Source: an uncultured Alphaproteobacteria bacterium (lineage in GTDB: Bacteria; Pseudomonadota; Alphaproteobacteria; HIMB59; GCA-002718135). From it: 64,000 bases of DNA. The first letter of the stretch is position 1; every line of letters begins with the position of its first letter. Position numbers and translations under genes: made by a program. The stretch spans positions 239,984-303,983 of the forward strand of contig CACNNQ010000002.1 in assembly GCA_902621855.1 (NCBI GenBank), written 5' to 3'. The notes under the pieces are model-generated. The model ran no database searches. It saw only the letters and a list, made by a program, of their open reading frames with translations, and was not told the DNA's origin. Positions 33 through 20,741 of the stretch are shown here, one piece after another.

Positions 33-914
33 TTAGCCCTTTACTGCTCCGGCAGTTAGACCACTTATTAACTGTCTTTGGAAAAACATGATTATCATAA
101 ACAGTGGTGCAGTTGCTGATACAACGCTTGAAACCGCCCACATATAATTTCCACTGTGTTCAATTGTACCTAAATAAGCATTAATTTTAGGAACCATTGT
201 ATAATTTTGCTGATTTAAGAGAAGTGAGGTAACTGTAAAATCATTATAGGCTAACATCATACTAAATAAACCTGCTGTAACAACACCAGGCCACATAACG
301 GGCATTATAACAAAACGAAAAGCTTGGAAATATGTGCAGCCGTCAATTAGTGCACTTTCATCTAACTCTTTTGGCACTGTTTTAAAGAAAGAATAAAGTA
401 ACCATAAAGTAAAAGGTTGATTGATTGCAACTAAAACAATTATTGTAGTTGGAAGTATGCCCCAAACATTTAGTTGGAAGAAAGGAAATAGATAACCAGA
501 AACTAATGTGATGTGTGGCATTGCTCTAAAGATTAATGCAGCTATTAAAATCCAAAAGGTATATTTGTATGTTGATCTAGATAATGCATAAGCACCTAAT
601 GTACCTAAAAATAAAGAGATCGTAACAACTGAAACTGTAATAATAATTGTATTCATTGTTGCTTTCCAAAATTCACCTTCAGTCCAAGACTCTACATATG
701 CCTTAACTGTAGAAGTATCTCCTGTTTCAATCAAAGTATTAACTCCTGTGACTGCAAACATCCAATCAGCTCTAGAGAAAAAGTCAGCTTTTACTTTAAA
801 TGATCCCCAAAAGGTCCATATAAAAGGAAACACGGAAACAATTAACCAAGTAAGAATAAAAAAACTATTTATTAAAATTAGTTGTTTTGAGTATCTATTA
901 ATTTTTGATTCCAT
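33..914 (-). CDS. ABC transporter permease, carbohydrate (CUT1) type, MalG/UgpE-like
   Basis: 293-aa multi-TM ORF with an EAA-type permease loop (ELDESALIDGCTYFQAFRFVIMP). It abuts the next permease gene. Confidence 0.85.
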   Translation of the reverse strand: MESKINRYSKQLILINSFFILTWLIVSVFPFIWTFWGSFKVKADFFSRADWMFAVTGVNTLIETGDTSTVKAYVESWTEGEFWKATMNTIIITVSVVTISLFLGTLGAYALSRSTYKYTFWILIAALIFRAMPHITLVSGYLFPFFQLNVWGILPTTIIVLVAINQPFTLWLLYSFFKTVPKELDESALIDGCTYFQAFRFVIMPVMWPGVVTAGLFSMMLAYNDFTVTSLLLNQQNYTMVPKINAYLGTIEHSGNYMWAVSSVVSATAPLFMIIMFFQRQLISGLTAGAVKG

Positions 915-915
915 A

Positions 916-1944
916 TTATCTTTCTGTCCTAAATTCTCTCCATGTTCTTATGAGTACTGGTGTTAGTAGAATTGCTACACCAATGATAGTTAACATAGAT
1001 GTTGCTCCTGCAGACCCAAATAACATTTTGTTTTCACTTCTTAAGTCGTTATAAATCATCCAAGAAAGTGATTGAGCAACTCCTTCAGCAGCGAACCCAA
1101 TTATTGGCTCAAGAACCCTAAAATTATCCATTAGACAAATTAATATAATAAATGTTGCTACCGGATAAAGGTGTGGAATAACAATGTGTCTGACTCGTTC
1201 ATATCTTGAGGCGCCATCTATGATCGCTGCTTCAATTGGATCTTGAGGAACAGTTTGTAAAGCAGCATAAAAGACAACAAAAGCAAATGGTGTATTGTGC
1301 CAAATCCCATAAATAATCAGAGTAATCCAAGTCAATTGACTTGAAGACTTTAGTGATAGGTTTGGATCATCAAATAAGAATTGAATAAATGAACCTAATA
1401 TTCCCTTAGCATCTATCATCCAAAATAAAACAAGCGATCCAATCAATGGTGTTACAATCATAGGCAGTATAACACCAAAAATAGTTGGGCCTTTTAAACT
1501 TTTTGTAATTGTGTTTACACTTAAAGCAACGATGAAACCTAAAACTACAACTGGTGGTGTAACGGCAAAACAAAATGTAAGTGTAAATAAAAGTGCTTTG
1601 TAAAAAGGTAAATTTAGTAAGATATCCGTAAACTCAGCTATGGATGAGGAATTAGTCCAAGCCTCTTTAATTTCATCAAAAGCCAAATGGTTTCTATCGC
1701 CGTATGTTCCTAAACCATTGAATCTTCCAAGAGGTTGTTCTTCTTGTAATTTTGTTGTTGCTTCAATATCAACTTTTGTTTCTGTTTTACATCCAAATGG
1801 ATCACATTTTTCTACTTCCATTAAAATTTGTTCAGGCTCAATGTGAAGAGATTGAAAAAAACTAGAAATAATTGGAAGGCCAATAAATAATAGCATTGCC
1901 AATCCACTTGGAAAGAAGAACCAAAAAAATGTTCTGTGGGGCAT
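916..1944 (-). CDS. ABC transporter permease, carbohydrate (CUT1) type, MalF/UgpA-like
   Basis: 342-aa multi-TM ORF with a long loop after TM1 and an EAA-type loop (IEAAIIDGASRYERVRHIVIP). Confidence 0.85.
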   Translation of the reverse strand: MPHRTFFWFFFPSGLAMLLFIGLPIISSFFQSLHIEPEQILMEVEKCDPFGCKTETKVDIEATTKLQEEQPLGRFNGLGTYGDRNHLAFDEIKEAWTNSSSIAEFTDILLNLPFYKALLFTLTFCFAVTPPVVVLGFIVALSVNTITKSLKGPTIFGVILPMIVTPLIGSLVLFWMIDAKGILGSFIQFLFDDPNLSLKSSSQLTWITLIIYGIWHNTPFAFVVFYAALQTVPQDPIEAAIIDGASRYERVRHIVIPHLYPVATFIILICLMDNFRVLEPIIGFAAEGVAQSLSWMIYNDLRSENKMLFGSAGATSMLTIIGVAILLTPVLIRTWREFRTER

Positions 1945-1956
1945 CTATTTCTTACT

Positions 1957-1990
1957 AAAAAAAAAGTGGAACATAATAATGTTCCACTTT
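1957..1990 (-). terminator. Intrinsic terminator/attenuator between the binding-protein gene and the permease genes
   Basis: Read on the minus strand: stem GTGGAACAT/ATGTTCCAC (extendable by A:U pairs), 4-nt loop, then a run of 9 U. Confidence 0.6.
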
Positions 1991-2010
1991 ATCATAAATA
2001 TTTATACGGT

Positions 2011-3246
2011 TTATAGAAAACCTTGCTCAGTAGCTTTTGCTACATAAGCAGCTTCTACATCCGCTAATGCTTTTTCAGCAGACTCATTTCCTTGAAGGAA
2101 TTCAACAAGTTCTGTACTCAAAGCACCATGTAATAGACTCATGTATGGTAAGCTTGGGTAAGGTGTTGCACCTCTATTAGCAGCGTCAACAACTGGTCCT
2201 GCTGTATCTCCAGGCGAATAACCATCGATCAACCAAATTGTTGCATTTGGATTAGCATTTGCCATTTCTGTTGAAGTTGCTGCACCTAAAAGAGCTCTAA
2301 AAGATGCTTCTGCATTTTCATCAGAAGTGTTTGTTGCAATTCCAAATCCATCCCACCATAGAGTTGTTGCTGGTTTACTTCCGCCACCTACAGATGGAGA
2401 AGGAGCTAATCTAGTATCAGCTTTAATTGCTTGATCACCTTCATCATCTAACAATGAAGCTGCACCTGAGTTCCAGATATGCATTAATGCTACATTACCA
2501 GACTCCCATTCTTCTTTAACTGCATTTGTGTCTTGAGTTAAGAAATCAGGGTTACTTACTTCGGTTAATCTTTTAAGCATATTAAGAGCAGCTACACCTT
2601 TAGCGTTATTTACACTAACTTCAGCTGTTCCAGCTTTAAAGAAATCACCTCCATGACCTAGGTACATGTTTACAAACTCTTGACCTAAGTTCCATCCAGA
2701 TTTGAAAGCACCAGCATATGGGTTAGCCATTTTACCAGAAGCTTTAATTTTTTCTGCAGCCGCAATTACCTCTTCATATGTTGAAGGAACTGCGATACCT
2801 AAATCATTAAGAATACTTTCTCTGTACCAAAGATGTTGAGCATTAGCCATAAATGCTACTGCATAAATTTTACCATCAATCACGATTTTTTGATTGTCTT
2901 GTAATGCACTTCCGTATTTAGCAACTAAATCATCAAGTGGACGAATTAAGTTATCATTCATTAAAGTTGTAATTGAACCGTTAGTTACAAGTTTAGCAGA
3001 GAATTCAGCTGGATTAGCTGAAAGTGCTGCAACTTGTAATTTATTATGATCAACGGAATGTGTTACAGAAAAATCTGCATCAGGTCCTGCACAACTTTTT
3101 ACTTCATCCATGAAAATTCTGTATGTTGTAAATTCGTTTGCTAGAATCTTTATTGATCCATCTGTTACTCCACAAGGTGAGTGCCCACCGGCATATGCAC
3201 TTGTGCTAACAAATGTAAACAATAGAGCTATTAATAGTTTTTTCAT
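2011..3246 (-). CDS. Periplasmic solute-binding protein, family 1 (sugar-type ABC importer)
   Basis: 411 aa with signal peptide MKKLLIALLFTFVSTSAYA. Size and position upstream of two CUT1-type permeases fit this class. Confidence 0.8.
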   Translation of the reverse strand: MKKLLIALLFTFVSTSAYAGGHSPCGVTDGSIKILANEFTTYRIFMDEVKSCAGPDADFSVTHSVDHNKLQVAALSANPAEFSAKLVTNGSITTLMNDNLIRPLDDLVAKYGSALQDNQKIVIDGKIYAVAFMANAQHLWYRESILNDLGIAVPSTYEEVIAAAEKIKASGKMANPYAGAFKSGWNLGQEFVNMYLGHGGDFFKAGTAEVSVNNAKGVAALNMLKRLTEVSNPDFLTQDTNAVKEEWESGNVALMHIWNSGAASLLDDEGDQAIKADTRLAPSPSVGGGSKPATTLWWDGFGIATNTSDENAEASFRALLGAATSTEMANANPNATIWLIDGYSPGDTAGPVVDAANRGATPYPSLPYMSLLHGALSTELVEFLQGNESAEKALADVEAAYVAKATEQGFL

Positions 3247-3329
3247 ATATTTCCCCTTATTAATAAACTGTGAAATTCACATTTAAGTATAAATCCTTTA
3301 TATTGGTATTAGAAAATAATGCAATAATA

Positions 3330-3358
3330 TGAATTGATATTCAAGATTTTGAATATTG
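3330..3358. promoter_or_regulatory. Candidate LacI-type operator in the divergent promoter (binding-protein gene / lacI-like gene)
   Basis: TGAAT-tgat-ATTCA at 3330-3343 is a 5-4-5 inverted repeat with the same architecture as GalR/LacI/cre operators. An extra TGAATATTG half-site lies at 3350-3358. Confidence 0.35.
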
Positions 3359-3375
3359 AAATGGGGGTATAATTT

Positions 3376-4374
3376 ATGAGTTTTAAAAAGACTGCGACAT
3401 CACAGGACGTAGCAAAACTAGCAGGAGTATCCCAATCAGCTGTTTCTAGATGTTTTACAAAAGGTGCTAGCATTTCTAGTAGAACAAAATTGAGAGTCTT
3501 GGAAGCAGCTAGGAAATTAAAATACAAAGCACCTAATATATCTTCTAATTCAATATCTAATGACGATAGCGGATTAGTTGCTGTCATTTTACCTTACGTT
3601 ACAAGCAGATATTATCCAGAAGTTTTAATAGAGTTACATGAAGCACTCAGGAATGGGGGGTTTAGAATTTTATTAATTACAACTGATGATGGAGAGGAAT
3701 TAGATGAAAAATTAATACAGCCATACTTAAAAGAAAAACTCATTGCAATAATATCAGCAACAAAACCCACTGATAAATTTGTCGAAGATTGCAATCAAAA
3801 AAGAATACAATTTATTGCTTATAATAGAAGTTGGAATATACCAACGATAAGTTCCGTTGCATGTGATCATCGTAACGGAGGAGAATTAGTTGCAGAATAT
3901 TTTACAAAGAAAAATCATAAAAATATTGGCCTCATTGAAGGACCAAAAGGATCTTTTGTTAGCGATGAGCGATGCAAAGGTTTTAGAAATTATCTTAAAA
4001 ATAATAAAAAAATTAAATTAAATATTGAAAAAGGTTTTTTTACTTATGAAGGTGGATATCAAGCAACAGAAAAAATTTTCAATAAAAAGATAAGTGCAAT
4101 ATTTTGTGCTGATGACACAATGGCATTTGGATGTTTAGATTATATTAAAAAAAATACTTCGTTAAAAACACCTTCTCAATTAGAAATTATTGGTTATGAC
4201 GATATATCAATGTCAGCTTGGGAATCATATAACCTTACAACTGTCAGACAACCTATTAGACAAATGTCAAAAATAGCAACTCAGTTAATAAATGAATATA
4301 TTAAAGATCCAGATTTTGAAACTATAAATCATATTGTACAGGGAAGACTTATAAAAAGAAAAACTACAAAATAA
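3376..4374 (+). CDS. LacI/GalR family transcriptional regulator
   Basis: 332 aa. N-terminal HTH ATSQDVAKLAGVSQSAVSRCF followed by a sugar-binding-type effector domain. Confidence 0.9.
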   Translation: MSFKKTATSQDVAKLAGVSQSAVSRCFTKGASISSRTKLRVLEAARKLKYKAPNISSNSISNDDSGLVAVILPYVTSRYYPEVLIELHEALRNGGFRILLITTDDGEELDEKLIQPYLKEKLIAIISATKPTDKFVEDCNQKRIQFIAYNRSWNIPTISSVACDHRNGGELVAEYFTKKNHKNIGLIEGPKGSFVSDERCKGFRNYLKNNKKIKLNIEKGFFTYEGGYQATEKIFNKKISAIFCADDTMAFGCLDYIKKNTSLKTPSQLEIIGYDDISMSAWESYNLTTVRQPIRQMSKIATQLINEYIKDPDFETINHIVQGRLIKRKTTK

Positions 4375-4375
4375 T

Positions 4376-4795
4376 TTACTTAAATTTTAATCCCATCTGT
4401 TCGAAGACACCATGATTATCTACCATAACGTAATTATCTAAAAATTTTCCATCTTTAATGGTCCAAAAATCTGAAAATTGCATTTTGATAGATTTGCCTG
4501 TTGGCTCCACTCCAAGATATGTTCCACTGTGTGTGCCTGTTAGAAATCCCGTTGCACTAATCCATTCACCTTCAGCAACCACAATATCATTTTTTACATG
4601 GTAATCTGGAAATGCTTCATAAAAAGGTTTTAGAACTTTATATTTAAAATTTTCTATACCATGGATATCACCAAAACCTGGAGGACCGTGCCAAACCATA
4701 TCATCATGCCAGTACTTATGTTGTGCTTCTAGATCTTGAGCATTAAGTGCATCATACATATCAGCTAATAATTTTTTACTTTCATCTAAAGTCAT
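4376..4795 (-). CDS. SnoaL-like / ester cyclase family protein (NTF2-like fold), single domain
   Basis: 139 aa. Family-typical pattern: AFPD..., GTHSGTYLGVEPTGKSIKM, and C-terminal D..GVFEQMGL. Confidence 0.7.
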   Translation of the reverse strand: MTLDESKKLLADMYDALNAQDLEAQHKYWHDDMVWHGPPGFGDIHGIENFKYKVLKPFYEAFPDYHVKNDIVVAEGEWISATGFLTGTHSGTYLGVEPTGKSIKMQFSDFWTIKDGKFLDNYVMVDNHGVFEQMGLKFK

Positions 4796-5931
4796 TTTTT
4801 ATCTCCTAAAATTTGCATTAGAATTGCAAGTTCATTAAAACCAGTCCACTCTTTAATAATTTTATTATTTTTAATTTCCCATTGAGTGATTCCCCACAAA
4901 TACACTTCTCTATTAGTTGGTTGGCCATATGAGCCATTACCTTTGTGAGTTCCTAAAGCGCCCCAACGAACCGATACTAAGTAACCATCTTTTGTATTTC
5001 CCATCCAGTATAAATCTTCAATACTGAGTGCAAGATCAGGAAATGAAGCTAAAAGTGATATTATAAATTTTCTTAATTGCAAAACTCCTTTAAATTTACG
5101 ACCAGTTGAACCTTCAAATTCTACATTACTCGAGTATGCTTTATTTATTGCAGAAAAGTTTCGTCTATTCCAAATTGTATCATAAACTGCATGAACAAAC
5201 TCTCTTACATTTTTGATTTTATCTGGAATATCAAAACTAATTGATTTTAATTTAGTAATATTTCTTGTTGGCTTAGAGTTTTTAAAATGAGGAGCATAGG
5301 GCCCTGCGATTCCCTCATCAACAAGTTGCTTGGCAACTTGATTTAAATCTAATCCGAGTTGTTTAATTAAGCCTGCTGTATCGTAAACAACATTTTCGTA
5401 ATAAATTTCATTATTTTTTGCTACACAATTTGCAATACAAAATAATCTTACTTTTTTATTAGTTGGTTTAGAAAATTTACTAAATCCCGTATTTGTTCCG
5501 GTAATAATTGTTCTATGCGAAGTATGAAAACTTGCATTTTCATCCCCTGCCCAAATAACTTCATCCGCAAATAATCGAATATCTGGAAAAGCGTTGTTTG
5601 TATGTACAGTATCAGCTACAATTTTTTCAGATCCAGATTGTAAACCAAATTCATCCCAAACTCTGCAATCTTTACTGTAGGTGTCATAGATGTAGCCAAT
5701 ATTTTTTTCTTCCCATATTTGATACGTAATCCTTACAATATAATCGATTATATTTTTATACTGATCCTCAAACCCCTTCATTGATTGATGTTTAAGTTTT
5801 TTAGGTTTTGGATTTAATGATTTAGCTGTTCCTCCACCTCCATATGCTTTTAATGAAATATCATAACTCTTAGGCATATGATTGTCTTGAAGAGCTTCTG
5901 GTCTTTTATCTGTAATTTTATTAAATTTCAT
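4792..5931 (-). CDS. Tandem two-domain SnoaL-like / ester cyclase family protein (paralogue type A1)
   Basis: 379 aa. Motifs DYIVRITYQIWEEKNIG and SFPDLALSIEDLYWMG...GTHKGNGSYGQPTNREV. Clear paralogue of 8176-9168. Overlaps the downstream gene by 4 nt. Confidence 0.65.
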   Translation of the reverse strand: MKFNKITDKRPEALQDNHMPKSYDISLKAYGGGGTAKSLNPKPKKLKHQSMKGFEDQYKNIIDYIVRITYQIWEEKNIGYIYDTYSKDCRVWDEFGLQSGSEKIVADTVHTNNAFPDIRLFADEVIWAGDENASFHTSHRTIITGTNTGFSKFSKPTNKKVRLFCIANCVAKNNEIYYENVVYDTAGLIKQLGLDLNQVAKQLVDEGIAGPYAPHFKNSKPTRNITKLKSISFDIPDKIKNVREFVHAVYDTIWNRRNFSAINKAYSSNVEFEGSTGRKFKGVLQLRKFIISLLASFPDLALSIEDLYWMGNTKDGYLVSVRWGALGTHKGNGSYGQPTNREVYLWGITQWEIKNNKIIKEWTGFNELAILMQILGDKK

Positions 5932-5976
5932 AATTTGTATTTGTAATGAGATACATTTAAAAATATTTCAAAGCAA

Positions 5977-6005
5977 TGAAATTCTATTCAAAAAAATGAA
6001 TATTG
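5977..6005. promoter_or_regulatory. Candidate LacI-type operator in the divergent promoter (type A1 / type B1 genes)
   Basis: TGAAA-ttct-ATTCA at 5977-5990 (5-4-5 inverted repeat, 4/5 arm match) plus TGAATATTG at 5997-6005. That 9-mer is identical to the one at 3350-3358. Confidence 0.3.
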
Positions 6006-6038
6006 TCTTTTTTAGTTTATTAATATAATCAAAATGAA

Positions 6039-7043
6039 ATGACTGATCTCCAAACAGAAAAAAAAATAGTATTAGATTATTTCAATGAAATAGATAGTTG
6101 CAACATTGATGCATTATCTGAAGTTATATCCAAATACGCATCAGAAGATTTTAGTATGAAATGTACCCACCCATTCAACGAACTAGGTAGTATAGATCTT
6201 GTTGCTAAAAATCTTTGGAAACCAATTAAAGATTCATTTTCACCTATACAACGTCGATTAGATATATTTTATGCTGGGATCAATTCACTAGATAAAAATA
6301 AAGGGAAATGGATCTCCAGTATGGGTCATTTCATGGGTGTTTTCAATAAGCCATTTGTAGGCCTTAAACCAAATAATAAATCAATTTTATTAAGATTTGC
6401 AGAATTTTACAAAGTGGAAAATAACAAAATTACTGAAGGAGCTATTTTTTTAGATGTAATGAATTTAATGCAGCAACTAGGTCTTTCTATAATTCCTGAA
6501 TCTACAGGTCTCGTTTGTGTAACACCAGGACCAATGAATCATAAAGGTTTAAAATTTGATATTTCTAATCAAAGTGAAAGTCAAAAAACATTAGATTTAA
6601 TTCATAGAATGCGCGATCGACTTGTTAAAGGGTCCAAAATGCAATCTTATAAAGAAGAATTAGAATTAGATTGGCATAACAATATGATTTGGTGGGGGCC
6701 AGGGGGTATAGGAGCTTCATATACTATTGATGGTTATCAAAAAGGTCACACAAAACCATTTCAAGATGGTTTAGAGTTTGTTCGTTTCAATGGACACATA
6801 CTTAGTAGTTCTGAAGATGATCTTGGAGGTTGGTTTGGTTGGCCAAATTTAATTATGAAACCTAAAGGAGAATATTTAGGATTAACAAATGCAAGTGATA
6901 TTGAATCAGAAATGAGAGTTGTAGATTTATATCGAAGAGATGGAGATAAACTGGCTGAAAACTGGATCTTTATTGATCATTTACATTTTTTAAAAAAACT
7001 TGGAGTGGATCTTTTAGAAAGAGCAAAATTTTTAAATCAGTAA
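6039..7043 (+). CDS. Tandem two-domain SnoaL-like / ester cyclase family protein (paralogue type B1)
   Basis: 334 aa. Motif MIWWGPGGIGASYTIDGY and C-terminal ENWIFIDHLHFLKKLGVD. Paralogue of 10245-11342. Confidence 0.65.
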   Translation: MTDLQTEKKIVLDYFNEIDSCNIDALSEVISKYASEDFSMKCTHPFNELGSIDLVAKNLWKPIKDSFSPIQRRLDIFYAGINSLDKNKGKWISSMGHFMGVFNKPFVGLKPNNKSILLRFAEFYKVENNKITEGAIFLDVMNLMQQLGLSIIPESTGLVCVTPGPMNHKGLKFDISNQSESQKTLDLIHRMRDRLVKGSKMQSYKEELELDWHNNMIWWGPGGIGASYTIDGYQKGHTKPFQDGLEFVRFNGHILSSSEDDLGGWFGWPNLIMKPKGEYLGLTNASDIESEMRVVDLYRRDGDKLAENWIFIDHLHFLKKLGVDLLERAKFLNQ

Positions 7044-8171
7044 TTAGATAACTTTTGAGGCAAGTTTAGTACCCTCAACTAATGCATGAAGCTTTTCATA
7101 ACAAATTTTTTCATCAATTTTTCCAAAACCAGCAAATGTACTAAAACCACAATCTGTCCCTGCCATTAATTGATCTTTTGGAATGACTGTAGAAAACTGA
7201 ATTAATCTATCTGCAACAACTTCCGGATGTTCTACAAAATTAGAAGTTGAGTCGATTACACCAGGTACTAGGACTTTATCTTTTGGTAACTTTATATCTT
7301 GAAAAACTTTCCATTCATGTGCGTGCCTAGGATTAGAAGATTCAATGAGAAAGTATTTTATCTTTGATTTCAAAATGATAGGTAATATTTTCTCTAGAGC
7401 AATATCGTGTGTGTGGGGTCCTTCATAATTACCCCAACATATATGCATTCTAGTTTGTTCAACATCTACATTAGATAATGCTGAGTTTAAGCATTCAATT
7501 TGTAGCTCTGCACGTTTAATAAACTCATCTTCAGATAAATTTTTAAAATTCATATGTCTTGCTAAAGCAAGGTCTGGGCAATCTAATTGGACTTGAATAT
7601 CTGATTTTGTTATTAGCTCATATTCTTTAGCCATAATATTAGATAATTTATCCAAATATTCATCTTCGGTACTATAAAATTTATTTGGCATAAAAACATT
7701 TATCACGCCAGGTGATGCTGAGTTCATAAATGCATTTCGGTGATTTAATTTATCAAGTGAATTTTTAAAATTATTTATATCTTGTTGAAGAGATGTTTCA
7801 TCTTTTACTTTTAATTCGTTTGTACAACATGGTCTGGTATAAGTTGGTGTGCCACCACTTTTAGCAATCTTTTCTTTGTATTCTGGAAAATCATCAAGAT
7901 CAGCAGGTGCTCTTCTTTCGCTTTCACCTGAGAACCCATCAATTCTGTCTTTAATATATGTAGCGTAGCTAATTTTACTCATCTCTCCATCACTGACAAA
8001 ATCAATTCCAACATCAAGTTGTTTCTTAACAATGCTTTGCACGTTATTTTTTAATACTTCATCAAAACTATTTTGACTAAATTTCTCTCCTTTATCTTTT
8101 GCAAATAAGAATTCTGAAAGTTCTTTTGATCTAGGAAGGCTTCCAACATGTGTTGTCAAAATATTAGACAT
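7044..8171 (-). CDS. Cobalamin-independent methionine synthase (MetE) catalytic-domain family protein, stand-alone
   Basis: 375 aa. N-terminal THVGSLPR and putative Zn-ligand motifs HICWGNYEG and GTDCGFS. Only one barrel is present (about half the length of full MetE). Confidence 0.75.
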   Translation of the reverse strand: MSNILTTHVGSLPRSKELSEFLFAKDKGEKFSQNSFDEVLKNNVQSIVKKQLDVGIDFVSDGEMSKISYATYIKDRIDGFSGESERRAPADLDDFPEYKEKIAKSGGTPTYTRPCCTNELKVKDETSLQQDINNFKNSLDKLNHRNAFMNSASPGVINVFMPNKFYSTEDEYLDKLSNIMAKEYELITKSDIQVQLDCPDLALARHMNFKNLSEDEFIKRAELQIECLNSALSNVDVEQTRMHICWGNYEGPHTHDIALEKILPIILKSKIKYFLIESSNPRHAHEWKVFQDIKLPKDKVLVPGVIDSTSNFVEHPEVVADRLIQFSTVIPKDQLMAGTDCGFSTFAGFGKIDEKICYEKLHALVEGTKLASKVI

Positions 8172-8175
8172 TAAA

Positions 8176-9168
8176 TTAACCTGTTTTTAATAAAATCTGT
8201 TTCCAGATCATAGTTTCATCATAGAGAACCCATTCATTTTTAATACCTCTTTCTCCAAATTCAACATGATTAATACCCATTATATAAATTTTCGAATTAG
8301 AGGCCTTTCCAAAAAAGCCATCTCCTTCATGTTTACCTACCATAGACCATCGAACTGAAGCTTTTTTAGGTTCATATTTTTCTTCAGTAAAAGCAATATG
8401 CTCGACTGAGAACAATGCGTTAGGAAAAGAATCTCTTAATTGTTTCCAAAATTTTATTACCTCATCTCTACCATAGTGAGTATTTCCTCCTGGTTGAAAT
8501 TGCTGTATGGCTCTGTCATAACTATCTTTTATTGTTTTCTCTAAATTGATGTTCATAATAGAGGTTAAGATGTTTGCATATACTTCTCCGCAGTTACCAG
8601 ATGCTAATACAGGAGATTTATAAATAGATTTAACAGGTGTATTTTCATCAAAGGGTTTACTAGCTTTTTCAGGACCACCTTCATCTTTAATAAGATTGCT
8701 TGCAAATTTCTTGGGGTCAATTCCAATTTGTCTCACAATTGCTCCTTGATCTCTCACAAGCCACTCATCATAAACTTGATTATTCATGCATGCACAATCA
8801 GCGATAGTTCGATAATACAGTTTTTTTCCTGTCGCTTTCCCATACATCCCATTAACAGAATGAGTTGAGGTTGATAAAATGCGATGCGATGAAAAATATC
8901 CCTCATCATCATTTCCTGTCCAAATTACATCTTCACCTAAAAGTGTTCTGTCGGGAAATAGTTTTTTACTAGCATATGTACTTTTAATTACTGGGTCTGC
9001 ACCATAAATTACTCCAGATGGAGATCTTGTAGGTGTGGGGAGACTTACATTTGGAGTATCAGCATAATAATCTCTTATTGCTTCAACATCGTTTTTTTCC
9101 CAAATCTGATATGTGATCTTTAAAATATAATCAGGAAAATCTTTGAATTGTGCATCAAATCCTTTCAT
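8176..9168 (-). CDS. Tandem two-domain SnoaL-like / ester cyclase family protein (paralogue type A2)
   Basis: 330 aa. DYILKITYQIWEKNDVE, DVIWTGNDDEGYFSSHR and SFPNALFSVEHI...GKHEGDGFFGKASNSKI align by eye with 4792-5931. Confidence 0.65.
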   Translation of the reverse strand: MKGFDAQFKDFPDYILKITYQIWEKNDVEAIRDYYADTPNVSLPTPTRSPSGVIYGADPVIKSTYASKKLFPDRTLLGEDVIWTGNDDEGYFSSHRILSTSTHSVNGMYGKATGKKLYYRTIADCACMNNQVYDEWLVRDQGAIVRQIGIDPKKFASNLIKDEGGPEKASKPFDENTPVKSIYKSPVLASGNCGEVYANILTSIMNINLEKTIKDSYDRAIQQFQPGGNTHYGRDEVIKFWKQLRDSFPNALFSVEHIAFTEEKYEPKKASVRWSMVGKHEGDGFFGKASNSKIYIMGINHVEFGERGIKNEWVLYDETMIWKQILLKTG

Positions 9169-9179
9169 ATAATTAATAT

Positions 9180-10151
9180 TTAATTAGTTTGTCGTATTAT
9201 AAATAAATTACCATCATGATCACTTATCTGTCTTACTGAACGAAGTGTATTTTTTGGAACAGAAAAAGTATCTTTTTCTTTAATTACAACTTTGTCTCCA
9301 TCACAATCTATTTCCCATTCACCAGATAAACAATGATACACTTCTGATTTCTCCAGTTTGTATTCATGTATATGAGCACTCTTGCCGTTGAGAAGTGAAA
9401 GGCTAAAACCTGTTGCATGCGGTATATTAGGGGTAAAAGATTTATCATGAATTTGAAACTGATCAATGTAGTTGATAATTTTATTAGATTGATAGTGATC
9501 ATCGTCGACAAAATATTTATCTTTATCATTAAATCGAATAACAAACTTTTCTATGTCTTCTGAAGAGTAATGATCGAAACTCTCTAATTCATTATCTTGT
9601 AGTGGCTGAATAATTTTAGTTTCATCTGTTATTTTCTGTTTCTCTGTGTCGATTAAAGAATTATCATTCATTAATACCATTCCAGATTCTTTTGCATCTT
9701 TTAAAAGTTTAGGTGTCCAAGTTATTACCCCTGGATCATTTTCACCAAGTACAACAAACATTAAAGCTTCTTCATCACTTATATTTTGAAAACCTCTAAA
9801 CATGTTTGTAGGAAAAGAGGCAATATCTCCTTTTTTTAGTGTCACTTCTCCTTCTGTACCATCAACCCCCCAATAAAAACGCCAAGCACCTGAGTGAATT
9901 ATAAAGACCTCTGCGGTAGTGTGACTATGTAATCCAGAACCGTTCATTGGCGCAGCACTTACTGCTCCAATATTAAAACCATGTTCTTCCGCTATTTTTA
10001 CATTTTGTTTAGCATCTTCACTGACGCCAGGGCCTATAACTGAATAATTTTTCCTATCTTGATGGCCTTTTAGTTTTCCCTCAACAAATGGTATATTACT
10101 TGGAATAAGTTCATCAAATTTTGCTAATCTAGATGTAATATTAATTGACAT
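9180..10151 (-). CDS. Bicupin (two cupin barrels), probable metal-dependent enzyme
   Basis: 323 aa. Cupin motif 1 appears in both halves: GSGLHSHTTAEVFIIHSG and GKSAHIHEYKLEKSEVYHCLSG (HxH...E). Confidence 0.7.
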   Translation of the reverse strand: MSINITSRLAKFDELIPSNIPFVEGKLKGHQDRKNYSVIGPGVSEDAKQNVKIAEEHGFNIGAVSAAPMNGSGLHSHTTAEVFIIHSGAWRFYWGVDGTEGEVTLKKGDIASFPTNMFRGFQNISDEEALMFVVLGENDPGVITWTPKLLKDAKESGMVLMNDNSLIDTEKQKITDETKIIQPLQDNELESFDHYSSEDIEKFVIRFNDKDKYFVDDDHYQSNKIINYIDQFQIHDKSFTPNIPHATGFSLSLLNGKSAHIHEYKLEKSEVYHCLSGEWEIDCDGDKVVIKEKDTFSVPKNTLRSVRQISDHDGNLFIIRQTN

Positions 10152-10177
10152 ATTGTAATGATCTTTTATTCATTTTT

Positions 10178-10192
10178 TTTGAATATTATTCA
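10178..10192. promoter_or_regulatory. Candidate operator: perfect 15-bp palindrome in the divergent promoter (bicupin / type B2 genes)
   Basis: TTGAATA-T-TATTCAA is a perfect 7-1-7 palindrome. It is flanked by further ATTCA (10167-10171) and TGAAT (10198-10202) half-sites. Confidence 0.35.
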
Positions 10193-10244
10193 AAATAATG
10201 AATAAATCAATTGTTAATTATCAATACTGTTATTTAAATTAAAT

Positions 10245-11342
10245 ATGGCAAATAAGATACAAAACTTTGATACTAGTGAAAAAGATATTTCAAATATTAT
10301 TCACTTAGATCTAGATCCAAAAATAAATATTGAAAACAAAATATACTTTAAAAATTTATTAAATAAAATTGCTGAGTGCTCTATAAAAGATTTAGAAGAT
10401 AATCTTGCAAATTTATATCATACAGATGCAGAGTTTAATGGCTTTCATCCAATTAATGAAATTAAGGGAATTGAAGAAATAAAAAATAAATACTTAATAC
10501 CTTTAAAGAAGGCATTCCCCGATCTCGAAAGAAGAAATAATCTAGTTATTGGTGGTGCATTTAGAGATAAAGTTTTTGTTTCTTTTGTAAGTCATTTAAC
10601 TGGAACTTTCACAAATGAATGGTTAGGAGTAAAGCCAACAAATAAAACAATTTATCTTAGAACATGTGAAGCGCATCAGATTACAAATAATAAAATAATA
10701 AAATCCTATACATTAATTGATACAGTTGATTTTATTCGTCAGGCTGGTCATTGGCCTATTAACAAATCTCTTGGATTAGAGGGCATGTGGCCTAGTCCAA
10801 TTACAGGTGATGGAGAAAATAATCAAAACTTAGATAAGGAATTGTCTCTCAAATCTTTAAATCAAGATTTGACTATGCAAAGAAGTTTAAATATTAAACC
10901 TGAGACTGAGCCAGGTCTATCAAAAGATCAAATAAGAGAAAAATTAATTAATCATCCTCAACAAGATTATTGGCATCCAAAAATGATGTGGTATGGACCA
11001 AGTGGTATAGGTACAGCTAGAGGTTTAGATGGTTTTGTTGATCATCACCAACTCCCATTTAGACTTACATTCAAGGATAGAGATTATTGGAAAATTGGTC
11101 ATTATATTGAAATTGGAGATGGAAATTATTCGATGACTGGAGGTTGGCATAGTATCCAATGCATTCATGGTTCAAGTGATTGGCTAGGATATGAACCAAC
11201 TCATAAAAAAATAACAATGAGAGTCATGGATTTTTATTTACATCATGAAGGGTTAATTAGAGAAAATTGGGTACCAATTGATATAGCCCATATATTAGAT
11301 CAAATAGGTATTGATATTTTTAGATTAATTCATAAAAAATAA
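10245..11342 (+). CDS. Tandem two-domain SnoaL-like / ester cyclase family protein (paralogue type B2)
   Basis: 365 aa. Motif MMWYGPSGIGTARGLDGF and C-terminal ENWVPIDIAHILDQIGID. Paralogue of 6039-7043. Confidence 0.65.
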   Translation: MANKIQNFDTSEKDISNIIHLDLDPKINIENKIYFKNLLNKIAECSIKDLEDNLANLYHTDAEFNGFHPINEIKGIEEIKNKYLIPLKKAFPDLERRNNLVIGGAFRDKVFVSFVSHLTGTFTNEWLGVKPTNKTIYLRTCEAHQITNNKIIKSYTLIDTVDFIRQAGHWPINKSLGLEGMWPSPITGDGENNQNLDKELSLKSLNQDLTMQRSLNIKPETEPGLSKDQIREKLINHPQQDYWHPKMMWYGPSGIGTARGLDGFVDHHQLPFRLTFKDRDYWKIGHYIEIGDGNYSMTGGWHSIQCIHGSSDWLGYEPTHKKITMRVMDFYLHHEGLIRENWVPIDIAHILDQIGIDIFRLIHKK

Positions 11343-11344
11343 CT

Positions 11345-12667
11345 ATGGCAATCGAATATTTAAAAAAAGGTTTAGATGAAAAACAAAGAGTTGAAGATAA
11401 TGATAAAGTAAAAAAAATTGTTGAGGAAACATTAAGGAAAATAGAATCAGAAGGTGATAAACATATTAGAGAGTTATCACAAAAATTTGATAACTATTCA
11501 CCAGATAGTTTTCGACTAAGTGAAGATCAAATTAATGAATTGATTGGTGAAGTCTCTGATGATGATAAAGAAGATATTAAATTTGCTCAAAAACAAGTAA
11601 GGTCATTTGCTGAAGCACAATTAAAAACTTTAAATGAATTAGAGGTAGAAACGCATCCTGGTGTTATTCTTGGTCATAAGAATATACCTGTACAAGCAGT
11701 TGGTTGCTATGTACCTGCTGGTAAATTTCCAATGGTAGCTTCTGCACATATGTCTGTTGTTACTGCATCTGTTGCAGGAGTACCAAGAATTGTAGCCACT
11801 ACTCCACCTTTTAAAGGCAAACCAAATCCTGCAGTTGTGACAGCAATGAAAATGGGTGGTGCTCATGAAATATATGTTTTAGGAGGAATGCAAGGAGTTG
11901 GTGCAATGGCAATTGGCACGGAAACTATTAAAGCTGTTGATATGCTTGTTGGACCTGGTAATGCATTTGTTGCTGAAGCAAAAAGACAACTATTTGGCAA
12001 AGTTGGTATTGATTTATTTGCTGGTCCAACTGAAACAATGGTTATTGCAGATGAGACAGTTGATGGTGAAATATGTGCAACAGACTTACTAGGACAAGCA
12101 GAACATGGATATAATTCTCCCGCTGTGATGATAACAAACTCTAGAAAACTTGCAGAAGAGACATTGAAAGAAATTGATAGAATTTTAGAAATCTTACCTA
12201 CTAAAGAAACAGCAAGTACAAGTTGGAGAGATTATGGAGAAATGATTTTATGTGATACCTATGAGGAGATGTTATCTAAAGCAAATGAAATAGCTTCAGA
12301 GCATGTACAAGTTATGACAAAAAAAGATGATTGGTTTTTAGAAAATATGACATCTTATGGAGCTCTATTTTTGGGTGCTAGAACGAATGTTGCAAATGGT
12401 GATAAGGTAATAGGCACTAACCATACTTTACCAACAAAAAAAGCTGGTAGATACACTGGGGGTCTTTGGGTAGGTAAATATATTAAAACACATACATATC
12501 AAAAAATCACAACTGATGAGGCAGCAACAAAAATTGGTGAATATGGATCCAGGTTATCATACCTTGAAGGCTTTATTGGTCATGCTGAGCAATGTAATGT
12601 CAGAGTAAGAAGGTATGGTGGAGTTAACGTTGAGTATGGGAAACCCGCAAAAAAATTAAAAAATTAA
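11345..12667 (+). CDS. Histidinol dehydrogenase (HisD) family NAD-dependent dehydrogenase, paralogue of uncertain substrate
   Basis: 440 aa. HisD-family motifs LLGQAEHG, GTNHTLPT and EGFIGHAEQ. Starts 2 nt after the type B2 gene. No other his genes in the window. Confidence 0.8.
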   Translation: MAIEYLKKGLDEKQRVEDNDKVKKIVEETLRKIESEGDKHIRELSQKFDNYSPDSFRLSEDQINELIGEVSDDDKEDIKFAQKQVRSFAEAQLKTLNELEVETHPGVILGHKNIPVQAVGCYVPAGKFPMVASAHMSVVTASVAGVPRIVATTPPFKGKPNPAVVTAMKMGGAHEIYVLGGMQGVGAMAIGTETIKAVDMLVGPGNAFVAEAKRQLFGKVGIDLFAGPTETMVIADETVDGEICATDLLGQAEHGYNSPAVMITNSRKLAEETLKEIDRILEILPTKETASTSWRDYGEMILCDTYEEMLSKANEIASEHVQVMTKKDDWFLENMTSYGALFLGARTNVANGDKVIGTNHTLPTKKAGRYTGGLWVGKYIKTHTYQKITTDEAATKIGEYGSRLSYLEGFIGHAEQCNVRVRRYGGVNVEYGKPAKKLKN

Positions 12668-14535: not shown

Positions 14536-15434
14536 TAGAAATATCCTTCTTGTTTTTTTATTTCCATAGATCCAATTTGATCACTGTCAATCAATCTCCC
14601 TTGTCTTTCTGAGTATTTAGTTTCTAAAAGTTCAATAATGATTTCTTCTACATTAGTAGCTGCGGACTCCATAGCTGCTGTTAATGGATAACAACCTAAT
14701 GTTCTAAATCTCACATTTTTTTGTTCTATTTTTTCATTCTGTTTGATTTCTAATCGATCATCATCAACCATAATCATCATGCCATCACGTTTGATAATTG
14801 GTCGAGTTTTAGCTAAATACAAAGGAACTATTGGTATTTTTTCTTGATAAATATATTGCCATATATCTAGCTCTGTCCAGTTCGATAGTGGAAATACCCT
14901 AACACTTTCATCAGTATTAATTTTTGTGTTAAATAAATTCCAAAGCTCTGGTTTTTGATTTTTAGGATCCCATCGATGATTTTTATCACGAAAAGAAAAA
15001 ATTCTTTCTTTTGCTCTTGATTTTTCTTCATCTCGCCGTGCACCTCCAAATGCAGCATCAAATTTATATTTATCTAAAGCTTGTTTTAAAGCTTGTGTTT
15101 TCATTATATCTGTATGAATTTTTGAACCATTTTTAATTGGACTAATTTTATTACGTATTCCATCTTGATTTATATGCACTATTAAATCAAGGTTATATGT
15201 CTTAGCAATTTGATCTCTAAATAAAATCATTTCTTTAAATTTCCAAGTTGTGTCTATGTGCATTATTTTAAAAGGTATATTATTTGGTGCAAAAGCTTTT
15301 AGAGCTAGATGCAACATTACAGAAGAATCTTTACCAATTGAATAAAGCATTACTGGATTATCAAATTCAGCAACAACTTCTCTAATGATATGAATGCTTT
15401 CTGATTCTAACTTATCTATATGTGATAGTTTCAT
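14535..15434 (-). CDS. cysD: Sulfate adenylyltransferase subunit 2
   Basis: 299 aa. PAPS-reductase-fold N-terminus [34 protein letters not shown]. Overlaps the cysNC start by 1 nt. Confidence 0.9.
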
Positions 15435-15435
15435 G

Positions 15436-20606: not shown

Positions 20607-20741
20607 ATTATTTCCCTTAAATTTTCTTAATCCCTATATTAAATTATACAATAAATAAAATAATAATGATTTCATTACTATATTAAAGTTAATATATTAA
20701 ACTGTATTTAGAGAATAATTGACTTTTTTACGACTGTTAAA

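Follow-up and report, generated by a model that had tools for sequence, protein, structure and literature searches.

Several described systems come close to parts of the gene cluster treated here. HpsN, the (R)-2,3-dihydroxypropanesulfonate 3-dehydrogenase of Cupriavidus pinatubonensis, carries out a four-electron oxidation of a C(OH)-CH2OH group; its loop reads G-R-Y-A/S-H, the last histidine of which (His126) binds the sulfonate, while the corresponding loop of histidinol dehydrogenase, HisD, reads G-S-A-P-L (PMC11382572). Members of SAR11 are reported to catabolize 2,3-dihydroxypropane-1-sulfonate (DHPS) and to dominate hpsN transcripts in the gyres, and an assayed SAR11 "HpsN," which may or may not be the orthologue treated here, has a Km of ~106 mM for R-DHPS (PMC11131964). 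In strain HTCC1062, DHPS uptake proceeds through SAR11_0864, a binding protein of the tripartite ATP-independent periplasmic (TRAP) type (PMC13335735). For Vibrio harveyi, hydrolysis of the mycosporine-like amino acids (MAAs) shinorine and porphyra-334 has been reported; it yields mycosporine-glycine and 4-deoxygadusol and has not been assigned to an enzyme (PMC3083659). Here we analyze a 64,000-nucleotide stretch of genomic DNA from an uncultured, SAR11-type marine alphaproteobacterium (GenBank assembly GCA_902621855.1, contig CACNNQ010000002.1, positions 239,984 to 303,983; below, the window, to which coordinates refer unless another locus is named). At its left end, twelve open reading frames (ORFs) spanning 33-12667 encode a sugar-type ATP-binding cassette (ABC) importer, a LacI-family repressor, five proteins of the NTF2/SnoaL superfamily (Sno1 to Sno5), a MetE-like protein, a bicupin, and a dehydrogenase of the HisD/HpsN family. 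Our results show that these genes belong to an ancient modular catabolic unit common to SAR11, Roseobacters, rhizobia, and Vibrio and shared in part with haloarchaea.

All twelve ORFs lie where an earlier note on this DNA had placed them, and the families that it named (solute-binding protein [SBP], LacI, five SnoaL proteins, MetE-like protein, and bicupin) were recovered with Pfam and NCBIfam profiles. The note had also put the spacers between divergent genes below 110 bp, which is right for two of them (107 and 93 bp) and wrong for the spacer between the SBP and LacI genes (129 bp). Each of these three divergent intergenic regions holds one exact copy of the palindrome TATTCA-N6-TGAATA: O1, TATTCAAGATTTTGAATA, at 3338-3355; O2, TATTCAAAAAAATGAATA, at 5985-6002; and O3, TATTCAAAATAATGAATA, at 10187-10204. 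No further copy occurs in the 64 kb, and shuffled sequence is expected to yield 0.02 matches on average. The positions are kept in related SAR11 loci, with O3, between the bicupin and Sno5 genes, found in every SAR11 variant whose locus spans that region. The three shared palindromes thus look like a candidate operator set for a LacI-family protein, of which one is encoded at 3376-4374 on the plus strand (Pfam LacI and Peripla_BP_1/3/4); it matches RbsR/CytR/CcpA-like NCBIfam models, in every case with a score under the cutoff.

The window cuts through the cluster, since further cluster genes are found in the left flank of the corresponding locus in a single-cell amplified genome (SAG; locus L002) whose cluster proteins are 95 to 100% identical to those of the window. 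There, a HAD hydrolase resembling beta-phosphoglucomutase/hexitol-phosphatase, a short-chain dehydrogenase/reductase (SDR), and a divergently transcribed EamA exporter occupy 18158-21067 and are followed by a 194-amino-acid (aa) PTA_PTB (phosphate acetyltransferase-like) ORF; the HAD and SDR genes recur in most SAR11 variants. The earlier note had expected the ATPase gene of the importer to the left of position 1; the flank of L002 carries the HAD, SDR, and EamA genes instead, and no ATPase gene for the importer was found in either the window cluster or that flank. Together with the HAD, SDR, and EamA genes left of the window, the genes at 33-12667 make up a single LacI-controlled regulon.

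That these genes form one selected catabolic unit, as had been proposed in the earlier note, is upheld by the shared palindrome, by synteny across SAR11, and by orthologous clusters in other orders; co-occurrence of the set, a check that the note had called for, was found in SAR11, Rhodobacterales, Hyphomicrobiales, and Vibrionales and partly in Halobacteria. A genome scan seeded with the MetE-like protein returned 80 SAR11 loci, nearly all from GORG Pelagibacterales single-cell genomes. Wherever the contig reaches, Sno5, the bicupin, Sno4, and the MetE-like gene are contiguous in these loci, at 57 to 99% protein identity, and the block always adjoins a LacI gene and a CUT1 (carbohydrate uptake transporter 1) importer. 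Outside SAR11, the cluster is plasmid borne in Ruegeria sp. AD91A and Octadecabacter arcticus 238, where it comprises a ugpC-like ATPase, an SBP, two permeases, a single-domain NTF2 protein, a gene annotated "hisD," a tandem NTF2 protein, an SDR, LacI, another tandem NTF2 protein, a cupin, a MetE-like protein, an alpha/beta-hydrolase, and an RraA-family protein. To these, Ruegeria adds an S-adenosylmethionine (SAM) methyltransferase and, on a divergent arm, an Amidohydro_2 protein with a further tandem NTF2 gene. Ensifer adhaerens has the same set minus the MetE-like gene (its context and that of Sinorhizobium medicae were read by tblastn and Pfam). A marine metagenome scan with the HisD-like protein alone yielded ~38 non-SAR11 contigs that carry the cluster to their ends.

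The content of the unit varies in a modular fashion. Among the other SAR11 variants, there are some that lack Sno1 to Sno3 and have another ABC system, whose SBP is only 40 to 48% identical; variants may also encode an additional tandem NTF2 protein, an RraA-like protein, or an alpha/beta-hydrolase, or have a ugpC-like ATPase and the SDR placed 3' of the HisD-like gene. The two ABC types swap together with particular NTF2 genes, and this tie between transporter type and NTF2 genes points to a funnel, in which substrate-specific uptake and trimming modules feed a shared core. Vibrio pelagius has only the ABC system and four tandem NTF2 genes, beside sarcosine oxidase. A plasmid of the haloarchaeon Halobellus limi (locus L087, 4747-11140) carries a run of five "ester cyclase" NTF2 genes, of which four are tandem, and next to it a MetE-like gene 3' of the last one, with ABC permeases, a metallo-beta-lactamase (MBL)-fold hydrolase, and dehydrogenases in the neighborhood; the module of NTF2 and MetE-like genes therefore crosses the boundary between Bacteria and Archaea. 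The pair of HisD-like and SDR genes stands alone in ~14 metagenome contigs. Only a degenerate remnant, next to insertion sequence (IS) elements, was seen in Phaeobacter inhibens DOK1-1. In S. medicae (locus L089, 7543-8967), an amidase-signature enzyme is encoded between the RraA-like and alpha/beta-hydrolase genes, a hint of a C-N bond in the rhizobial substrate. SAR11-type clusters (MetE-like protein 75 to 86% identical) also turned up in metagenome-assembled genomes labeled Neomarinimicrobiota, Flavobacteriaceae, and "Methanobacteriota archaeon" (loci L058, L066, and L077), which are probably mis-binned SAR11 contigs.

The five NTF2/SnoaL genes total 4656 bp, in line with the "about 4.6 kb" of the earlier note, whose count of nine domains also stands: Sno1 has one, and Sno2 to Sno5 have two apiece, all with an independent E value (i-E) of 1e-33 or lower. 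The count comes from an iterative profile search seeded with Sno1, the single-domain class B protein (4376-4795, minus strand; Pfam SnoaL, 88.6 bits). The tandem proteins are Sno2 (class A; 4792-5931, minus strand; Pfam and iterative profile), Sno3 (class B; 6039-7043, plus strand; i-E of 1e-43 and 2.5e-40 for its two domains), Sno4 (class A; 8176-9168, minus strand), and Sno5 (class B; 10245-11342, plus strand). Pfam alone detects only one SnoaL stretch in Sno3. Matches to PF07366/PF12680 and an alpha+beta cone fold place the proteins in the NTF2/SnoaL superfamily, and the fold, which the note had proposed for checking by profile and structure searches, is supported by both the nine profile-defined domains and a model of Sno4. 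In that AlphaFold model (predicted local distance difference test [pLDDT], 89; predicted template modeling [pTM] score, 0.87), two NTF2 barrels are seen. Single domains match SnoaL-like proteins, AclR, IdmH, and limonene epoxide hydrolases in Foldseek searches at TM (template modeling) scores of 0.65 to 0.8, and the full length matches the tandem NTF2 enzymes Lsd19 and MonBI-MonBII. For Sno1, the matches in the PDB are ester cyclases, IdmH, and AclR.

With the polyether epoxide hydrolases Lsd19 and MonBI-MonBII, the tandem proteins share the fusion of two NTF2 barrels, and cofactor-free acid-base chemistry is to be expected of them as of those enzymes and of the aldol cyclases SnoaL and AknH. 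Identity to all of these is only 7 to 16%, however, and the polyketide context is missing: the cluster has an importer and a repressor but neither a polyketide synthase nor any other core gene of biosynthesis. Unlike the Lsd19- and SnoaL-type genes, those of the cluster are catabolic and importer linked, and each cluster holds four or five paralogues that are distinct and conserved. Of the five NTF2 proteins of SAR11, all but one have an orthologue of their own in the Roseobacter cluster (Sno4 and EC329, 48% identity; Sno3 and EC337 of Ruegeria, 42%; Sno1 and EC176, 34%; Sno5 and EC350, 33%). The remaining one, Sno2, is a paralogue of Sno4 (32%) that goes together with the window-type ABC system; Sno2-like genes adjoin the same ABC type in Octadecabacter and Ensifer (43 to 55%). 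Since each paralogue has its own orthologue across orders, the NTF2 paralogues must be old, and each presumably does a job of its own. Sno4, which always adjoins the bicupin, has homologues in 7182 clusters of a metagenome-derived protein database.

The gene at 7044-8171 (minus strand) encodes a protein annotated as "cobalamin-independent methionine synthase II family" that appears to be a single-barrel zinc alkyl-transferase (Pfam Meth_synt_2, 50.3 bits versus a cutoff of 21). At 375 aa it has one barrel rather than the two-barrel, ~750-aa architecture of MetE, and it is 50 to 54% identical to the MetE-like protein of the Roseobacter cluster. In eight homologues from three phyla, from SAR11 to haloarchaea, the motifs H-x-C, E, and D-C-G, which we take from knowledge of MetE to be zinc ligands, are invariant, as are GS(L/M)PR and DGE, which presumably contribute to the homocysteine site as in MetE. 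With these homocysteine-site motifs retained, we suggest that a methyl group passes from an unusual donor to a homocysteine-like thiol. The closest described counterparts are the folate-independent "core" methionine synthases (archaeal MetE/MesA type), reportedly classified by Price et al., which likewise consist of one (beta/alpha)8 barrel of ~375 aa and keep both the GSxPR and DGE motifs near the N terminus and the zinc site of MetE (H-x-C, E, C). NF003317, a profile for archaeal core methionine synthases, aligns over the full length (E = 2e-30), under its cutoff, and NCBIfam methionine synthase models all score far under theirs (e.g., 106 versus 406). In contrast to the core enzymes, the MetE-like protein thus falls under every equivalog cutoff, is encoded in a LacI-regulated cluster of catabolic genes, and has NTF2 proteins, not corrinoid proteins or DUF1852, as its recurrent partners. 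Its methyl donor is probably not methyl-tetrahydrofolate-polyglutamate.

A MetE-like gene and a single NTF2 gene also stand together on plasmid pCME4A9I of Croceicoccus marinus (locus L085, 6966-11517), directly after metF-purU-folD and a dihydroneopterin aldolase gene and beside ligK, ligAB, and the gene for a LigM-type aminomethyltransferase (demethylase). This context fits a demethylation role for the MetE-like protein, and the two genes may be an unrecognized methyl-handling pair in lignin-type O-demethylation clusters. There is a broader likeness to the end of the protocatechuate 4,5-cleavage/gallate pathway (LigI/LigJ, LigK/GalC): the Croceicoccus pair lies inside such a lig cluster, and other versions of our cluster encode RraA-family and Amidohydro_2 proteins together with a ring-cleaving type of oxygenase. 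Nevertheless, the cluster has neither a LigAB-type extradiol dioxygenase nor an aromatic-acid transporter but a sugar-type importer and LacI.

The bicupin, a probable metal-dependent oxygenase (9180-10151, minus strand), matches Cupin_2 twice in Pfam. Its model (pTM, 0.77) is nearest in Foldseek to oxalate decarboxylase (OxdC), quercetin 2,3-dioxygenase (YxaG), and salicylate/gentisate dioxygenase, at E of ~1e-14. The closest folds are those of bicupins that cleave C-C bonds with O2. In the N-terminal domain, H75-x-H77-x3-E81 is invariant. The motif 2 histidine is replaced by an invariant arginine in both domains (Arg119 and Arg304), a departure from the canonical 3-His (+Glu) site, and in the C-terminal domain H260 and H262 are kept in fewer than 90% of homologues. 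With the N-terminal site invariant, its third histidine replaced by arginine, and the C-terminal site poorly kept, the protein likely has one active 2-His-1-Glu site with an arginine nearby. It shares the bicupin architecture, the H-x-H-x3-E motif, and TM scores of ~0.5 with quercetin 2,3-dioxygenase, acireductone dioxygenase, and gentisate/salicylate 1,2-dioxygenase; it differs from these cupin oxygenases in its low identity (10 to 16%), in the arginine at the place of the third metal-binding histidine, and in the poor conservation of the C-terminal site. Just as a depside esterase follows quercetinase, an esterase gene lies near the bicupin gene in Roseobacter, rhizobial, and some SAR11 versions. 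Of the accessory enzymes of these other variants, the alpha/beta-hydrolase looks like an esterase or enol-lactonase (BioH/PcaD-like), and the RraA-family protein looks like a divergent aldolase or decarboxylase; Ruegeria encodes an Amidohydro_2 protein resembling sugar lactonases as well as a hydrolase resembling enol-lactonases. A comparison of the SAR11 RraA-like protein with the PDB, made to test its identity as a 4-carboxy-4-hydroxy-2-oxoadipate (CHA) aldolase, gave no match at E < 1e-5.

The last gene of the cluster (11345-12667, plus strand) encodes a putative NAD-dependent four-electron alcohol dehydrogenase of the HisD/HpsN family. It scores 443.6 bits against Histidinol_dh (PF00815) and 428.5 bits against TIGR00069 (cutoff, 243.8), a model that the Ruegeria homologue passes as well and that does not separate the subfamilies. 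Of the solved structures, that of HpsN (8V35) matches best, with 398 bits and 47% identity, as against 256 bits at most for HisD. In an alignment to 8V35, the zinc ligands Gln248, His251, Asp352, and His411, the catalytic residues Glu318 and His319, and Lys353 are all kept. The loop, by contrast, reads G-K-F-P-M in the window, Ruegeria, and Octadecabacter proteins, agreeing with neither the HpsN nor the HisD motif and placing methionine at His126; the Ensifer ORF call misses the N terminus of the loop, so that the motif is not readable there. The protein is 74 to 77% identical to the cluster-borne proteins of Ruegeria, Octadecabacter, and Ensifer, and 120 plasmid records fall into the band of 60 to 80% identity. 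Given that HpsN is closest, that His126 is absent, that the loop is G-K-F-P-M, and that identity across orders is high, we assign the dehydrogenase on sequence grounds to a third subfamily that is neither HisD nor canonical HpsN and that is under tight constraint, its SAR11 and rhizobial members being ~75% identical. A housekeeping hisD flanking a variable island, which conservation of 95 to 96% had suggested, was considered and rejected, as the protein is closer to HpsN, has another motif, and is encoded inside the cluster in other orders. Canonical HpsN was likewise rejected on account of the missing sulfonate-binding His126.

The gene starts 2 bp downstream of Sno5, behind the shared candidate operator. 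Sno5 is directly upstream in every SAR11-type contig with upstream sequence in a scan seeded by the HisD-like protein; as the gene is also located inside the Roseobacter and rhizobial clusters, it belongs to the unit. A search for the exact protein in other contexts found one contig only, with the same layout. No histidine-biosynthesis context surrounds the gene, whose neighbors are Sno5 and cysNC, and its orthologues are plasmid borne in catabolic clusters. Like HisD, the cluster enzyme belongs to the Pfam family, passes TIGR00069, and bears the label "hisD" from the Prokaryotic Genome Annotation Pipeline (PGAP) in Ruegeria and Rhizobium records; in contrast to HisD, it has no his-operon context and is plasmid borne in many bacteria that have a chromosomal hisD. 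With HpsN it shares the fold, PF00815, the pairing with an SDR (as HpsN is paired with HpsO in HpsNOP), and presumably the same four-electron oxidation; unlike HpsN, it lacks hpsOP, suyAB, and hpsKLM neighbors and is embedded in a cluster of NTF2, cupin, and MetE-like genes. By analogy, we infer that it oxidizes a C(OH)-CH2OH group whose anionic tail is held by Lys353, for which the simplest carboxylate isostere of DHPS would be a 3,4-dihydroxybutanoate-type skeleton.

Several further observations concern this family. On many plasmids, PGAP labels the cluster dehydrogenase "hisD: histidinol dehydrogenase" and attaches a histidine-biosynthesis GO (Gene Ontology) term (e.g., locus L081, 7058-8389; hits H51-H95), probably a systematic misannotation, since TIGR00069 does not separate the subfamilies. 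In some SAR11 genomes (loci L020, L059, L060, L062, L069, L070, and L074, at ~5530-6820 in each), the slot after Sno5 is taken by a second HisD-family type of 428 aa with the motif G-R-Y-N-N, 55% identical to C. pinatubonensis HpsN (CpHpsN) and 47% identical to the protein of the window; here one paralogue has replaced another while the position stayed fixed. G-K-F-P-M genes ~75% identical to the SAR11 protein are found on pRL8 of Rhizobium johnstonii 3841 (locus L090, 10930-18602), with a LacI-type regulator, pntAB, and acs and without an adjacent SDR, and in Tritonibacter (locus L091, 7766-14186), with LacI, a TAXI-TRAP transporter, and an SDR; neither locus has NTF2 or cupin genes beside the HisD-like gene. 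In two marine metagenome loci, L115 (4889-11914) and L156 (558-12235), the HisD-like gene is followed by OtnI, a DUF1537 kinase (OtnK), and an OtnC-like decarboxylase, with an SDR in between in L115 only; L115 further encodes a CUT2 ABC system, a dehydrogenase of the 3HCDH type, and an MBL hydrolase. The Otn genes 3' of the HisD-like gene tie the module in these organisms to C4 acid-sugar chemistry, and the two loci may represent a distinct tetritol, tetronate, or ascorbate-like pathway. They resemble the L-threonate/D-erythronate pathway in having OtnI/OtnK/OtnC in one operon after the HisD-like gene or after it and the SDR. However, the window has no Otn genes, nor do nearly all of the other versions, and the canonical LtnD/DenD dehydrogenases of that pathway were not identified.

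On the uptake side, the cluster matches a LacI-regulated CUT1 sugar-type import system in having an SBP_bac_1 periplasmic SBP (2011-3246, minus strand; Pfam E = 2.8e-19), two MalF/G-type permeases, a LacI repressor, and a palindromic candidate operator. The MalG-type permease (33-914, minus strand), syntenic in SAR11 loci, is 53% identical to a carbohydrate ABC permease of Ruegeria and 60% to one of Octadecabacter; the MalF-type permease (916-1944, minus strand) is 39 to 62% identical to proteins annotated as sugar ABC permeases. An attempt to deduce the ligand from the SBP was dropped, as solved sugar and glycoside SBPs match only distantly (best, 46 bits) and the matches to many glycoside binders are uninformative. 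SAR11_0769 (8HQQ), a characterized SAR11 glucose binder, scores 26 bits against the SBP, which is 48 to 54% identical to the SBPs of Roseobacter-type clusters. The sole ugpC-like match in the window is weak and lies beside a znuA-like gene. Between the SBP and permease genes, a strong terminator-like hairpin with a 12-bp stem followed by a T-run (1963-1990, minus strand) has the arrangement usual for excess binding protein and is a possible attenuator raising the ratio of SBP to permease.

The right flank of the cluster holds sulfur genes. A cysNC fusion, cysD, and cysQ, for synthesis and recycling of 3'-phosphoadenosine 5'-phosphosulfate (PAPS), lie directly 3' of the HisD-like gene (12664-16239). 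The cysNC and cysD genes are indel polymorphic, being present in some SAR11 SAGs, while in others cysQ adjoins the HisD-like gene; to our knowledge, SAR11 is usually described as lacking assimilatory sulfate reduction. Six kilobases from the cluster (17227-20606), xsc, encoding sulfoacetaldehyde acetyltransferase (TIGR03457, 940 bits versus a cutoff of 676), forms a sulfonate mini-island with the gene for a glucose-methanol-choline (GMC) oxidoreductase, a choline-dehydrogenase-like protein under the betA cutoff that is a possible isethionate dehydrogenase. Scans for Rfam families and tRNAs found none in the window, and a sigma-70 promoter scan gave fewer matches than in shuffled sequence and was thus uninformative.

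The earlier note knew of no characterized pathway with this enzyme set, and we likewise found none in the literature or in profile searches, a result that marks the limit of the search and is not proof of absence. Nothing relevant was found in the literature on the enzyme combination, on SnoaL proteins in SAR11, or on MAA or gadusol catabolism, and the Pfam and NCBIfam matches of the window cluster include none of YihS/V/T, SuyAB, UlaD-F, IolD/E, and OtnK/C/I, which would have pointed to sulfoquinovose, DHPS, ascorbate, inositol, or threonate. We therefore consider a general mechanism built from the families present. A polar algal or plant metabolite would be taken up by the CUT1 ABC importer, and an inducer would relieve LacI at the three TATTCA-N6-TGAATA candidate operators. 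The cofactor-free tandem NTF2 enzymes could then turn several related imports into one common intermediate by hydrolysis, tautomerization, or (retro-)aldol-type steps, and the MetE-like protein would move a methyl group from that intermediate onto a homocysteine-like thiol. Versions without the MetE-like gene carry the esterase, and some have both; where an esterase is present, ester hydrolysis may take place at this stage. The quercetinase-like bicupin would oxidatively cleave an ene-diol(one)/reductone, and the enol-lactonase/BioH-like esterase, Amidohydro_2 lactonase, and RraA-type aldolase/decarboxylase of other variants could process the opened chain. Finally, a fragment that combines an anionic tail with a C(OH)-CH2OH group would be oxidized by the HpsN-like enzyme and the SDR, and the resulting hydroxy-acid of the tricarboxylic acid (TCA) type would enter central metabolism. 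The earlier note had the HisD-like enzyme act first; this is probably wrong, as the context points to the HisD-like enzyme and the SDR as a terminal module. We give this general scheme of import, NTF2 trimming, demethylation, bicupin opening, and HpsN-like oxidation an even chance of being correct.

The identity of the substrate is a more speculative matter. MAAs and (deoxy)gadusol are the one class of compounds for which every part of the cluster would have a use: Gly, Ser, or Thr is attached through enaminone or imine bonds, the enol ether is O-methylated, the reductone is cyclic, and there is a C(OH)(CH2OH) center. As leading candidates, MAAs, 4-deoxygadusol, or gadusol are put forward tentatively and with low confidence, and that the cluster is a bacterial MAA/gadusol mineralization pathway in SAR11, Roseobacters, and Vibrio is a possibility to which we assign a similarly small weight. 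On such substrates, the NTF2 enzymes would hydrolyze the amino-acid C-N bonds and release glycine, serine, or threonine; the MetE-like protein would take the O-methyl group, giving methionine; the bicupin would open the reductone ring, with loss of the central carbon if cleavage is of the quercetinase type; and oxidation of the hydroxymethyl-bearing acid would lead to citrate or malate, citrate being the product expected after such a loss. An alternative 2-oxo-acid route would need the RraA-type aldolase and end in pyruvate and a C4 acid. No MAA or gadusol catabolic genes were found in the literature.

A number of points weigh against the scheme and its leading substrates. Each chemical step is proposed from family membership, and the NTF2 domains have no close characterized relatives. 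The three regions that supplied the operator pattern are also those in which its matches were then counted. The window variant has neither the esterase nor the RraA-like gene, which implies that the downstream route varies or relies on genes elsewhere. The Otn trio of L115 and L156 suggests tetronate (C4 acid-sugar) intermediates that the MAA route does not predict, and the rhizobial and soil occurrence, the HAD sugar-phosphatase-like gene of SAR11, and the amidase of S. medicae fall outside an explanation by MAAs. Moreover, the SAR11 cluster stands beside sulfur genes (cysDNC, cysQ, and xsc), which would fit a sulfonate substrate.

The tetronate signal leads to one such alternative, in which the bicupin, the esterase/lactonase, the RraA-like protein, and the HisD-like enzyme with the SDR degrade L-ascorbate, dehydroascorbate, 2,3-diketogulonate, or a related sugar-derived reductone lactone to a C2 and a C4 unit, the latter (threonate or erythrulose) being finished by the HisD-like enzyme and SDR and, where present, by OtnI/K/C. 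The Otn trio after the HisD-like gene (L156) or after it and the SDR (L115) agrees with this, as do the MBL-fold hydrolase and the 3HCDH-type dehydrogenase in L115 and the MBL hydrolase in Halobellus; the MBL fold is that of the ascorbate-6-phosphate lactonase UlaG. So do the sugar-lactonase-like Amidohydro_2 protein and enol-lactonase-like hydrolase of Ruegeria, the proximity of the bicupin to ene-diol(one)-cleaving oxygenases, and the occurrence in phototroph-associated bacteria and rhizobia, which would suit a ubiquitous plant and algal metabolite. However, it leaves the MetE-like methyl transfer and nine NTF2 domains without a role, just 2 of ~170 loci have Otn genes with the cluster, the lifetime of ascorbate in seawater is very short, and a different aerobic ascorbate pathway has already been characterized in Cupriavidus. 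We consider this reading improbable. A sulfonate substrate is, in our estimate, quite unlikely. The HpsN-like enzyme would then be a true DHPS or sulfolactaldehyde dehydrogenase, and sulfoquinovose, sulfoquinovosyl-glycerol, DHPS, or a relative would be converted to sulfolactate and desulfonated by nearby Xsc-type machinery. HpsN is indeed the closest solved relative, Lys353, a sulfonate contact in HpsN, is kept (PMC11382572), and SAR11 members are reported DHPS catabolizers (PMC11131964). The SBP also weakly matches SmoF, the sulfoquinovosyl-glycerol binding protein; xsc and the GMC gene are nearby, cysDNC and cysQ abut the HisD-like gene, and some SAR11 genomes have the second HpsN-like type at the same position. 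Nonetheless, His126 is Met in the window protein and Asn in that second type, the defining enzymes of the known sulfoglycolysis routes are all absent, and no suyAB, xsc, cuyA, comDE, or sulfite exporter gene occurs within ~14 kb of the Roseobacter and rhizobial clusters. Furthermore, DHPS uptake in HTCC1062 is of the TRAP type (PMC13335735), and the assayed SAR11 "HpsN," which may be another paralogue than the window protein, has a Km of ~106 mM for R-DHPS (PMC11131964).

It might also be argued that the adjacency is fortuitous, with a housekeeping or independent hisD beside a variable island whose SnoaL genes are unrelated or make up a small biosynthetic cluster of the polyketide "ester cyclase" type. 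The HisD-like protein does pass TIGR00069 (428 versus 244 bits), stays 95 to 96% identical where neighboring genes drop to 57 to 78%, and is encoded at the cluster edge beside the indel-polymorphic cysDNC block, and its subfamily occurs without SnoaL or cupin genes on pRL8 and in Tritonibacter. Yet its HpsN score is far above its HisD score and the G-S-A-P-L motif is absent; the gene follows Sno5 by 2 bp behind a shared candidate operator, has Sno5 directly upstream in every informative SAR11 contig of the scan that it seeded, and is embedded in the Roseobacter and rhizobial clusters; and there is an importer with a repressor where a polyketide synthase or other biosynthetic core gene would be expected. 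Chance adjacency or a biosynthetic cluster is thus extremely improbable and effectively excluded.

All parts of the unit come from known superfamilies, and its logic of repressor, importer, and enzymes is ordinary. It is widely distributed among the marine heterotrophs of greatest abundance. What sets it apart are three enzyme groups without assigned chemistry, namely, the importer-linked tandem NTF2 proteins, the single-barrel MetE-like protein partnered with NTF2 proteins, and the conserved HpsN-like subfamily, and the cluster is also present in genetically tractable hosts (Ruegeria, Ensifer, Sinorhizobium, and Octadecabacter). In genome and meta-omic surveys, the HisD-like gene is likely counted as histidine biosynthesis or DHPS catabolism. 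If the cluster does act on MAAs, a large share of the marine "hisD" and "hpsN" reads of SAR11 and Roseobacters would report an MAA pathway, and the tandem NTF2 proteins would be a new class of enaminone/imine C-N hydrolases acting on MAAs and gadusol, the chief UV-sunscreen compounds of the ocean. Few known genomes are as streamlined as those of SAR11, yet this clade keeps ~12 to 15 kb for the cluster, and Roseobacters and other bacteria of the sea commonly have an orthologous one. Its retention in streamlined genomes, its wide occurrence, and the abundance of Sno4 homologues in metagenomes suggest that the substrate matters in labile dissolved organic matter, of which it is likely a quantitatively important component that is missing from current carbon-flux models.

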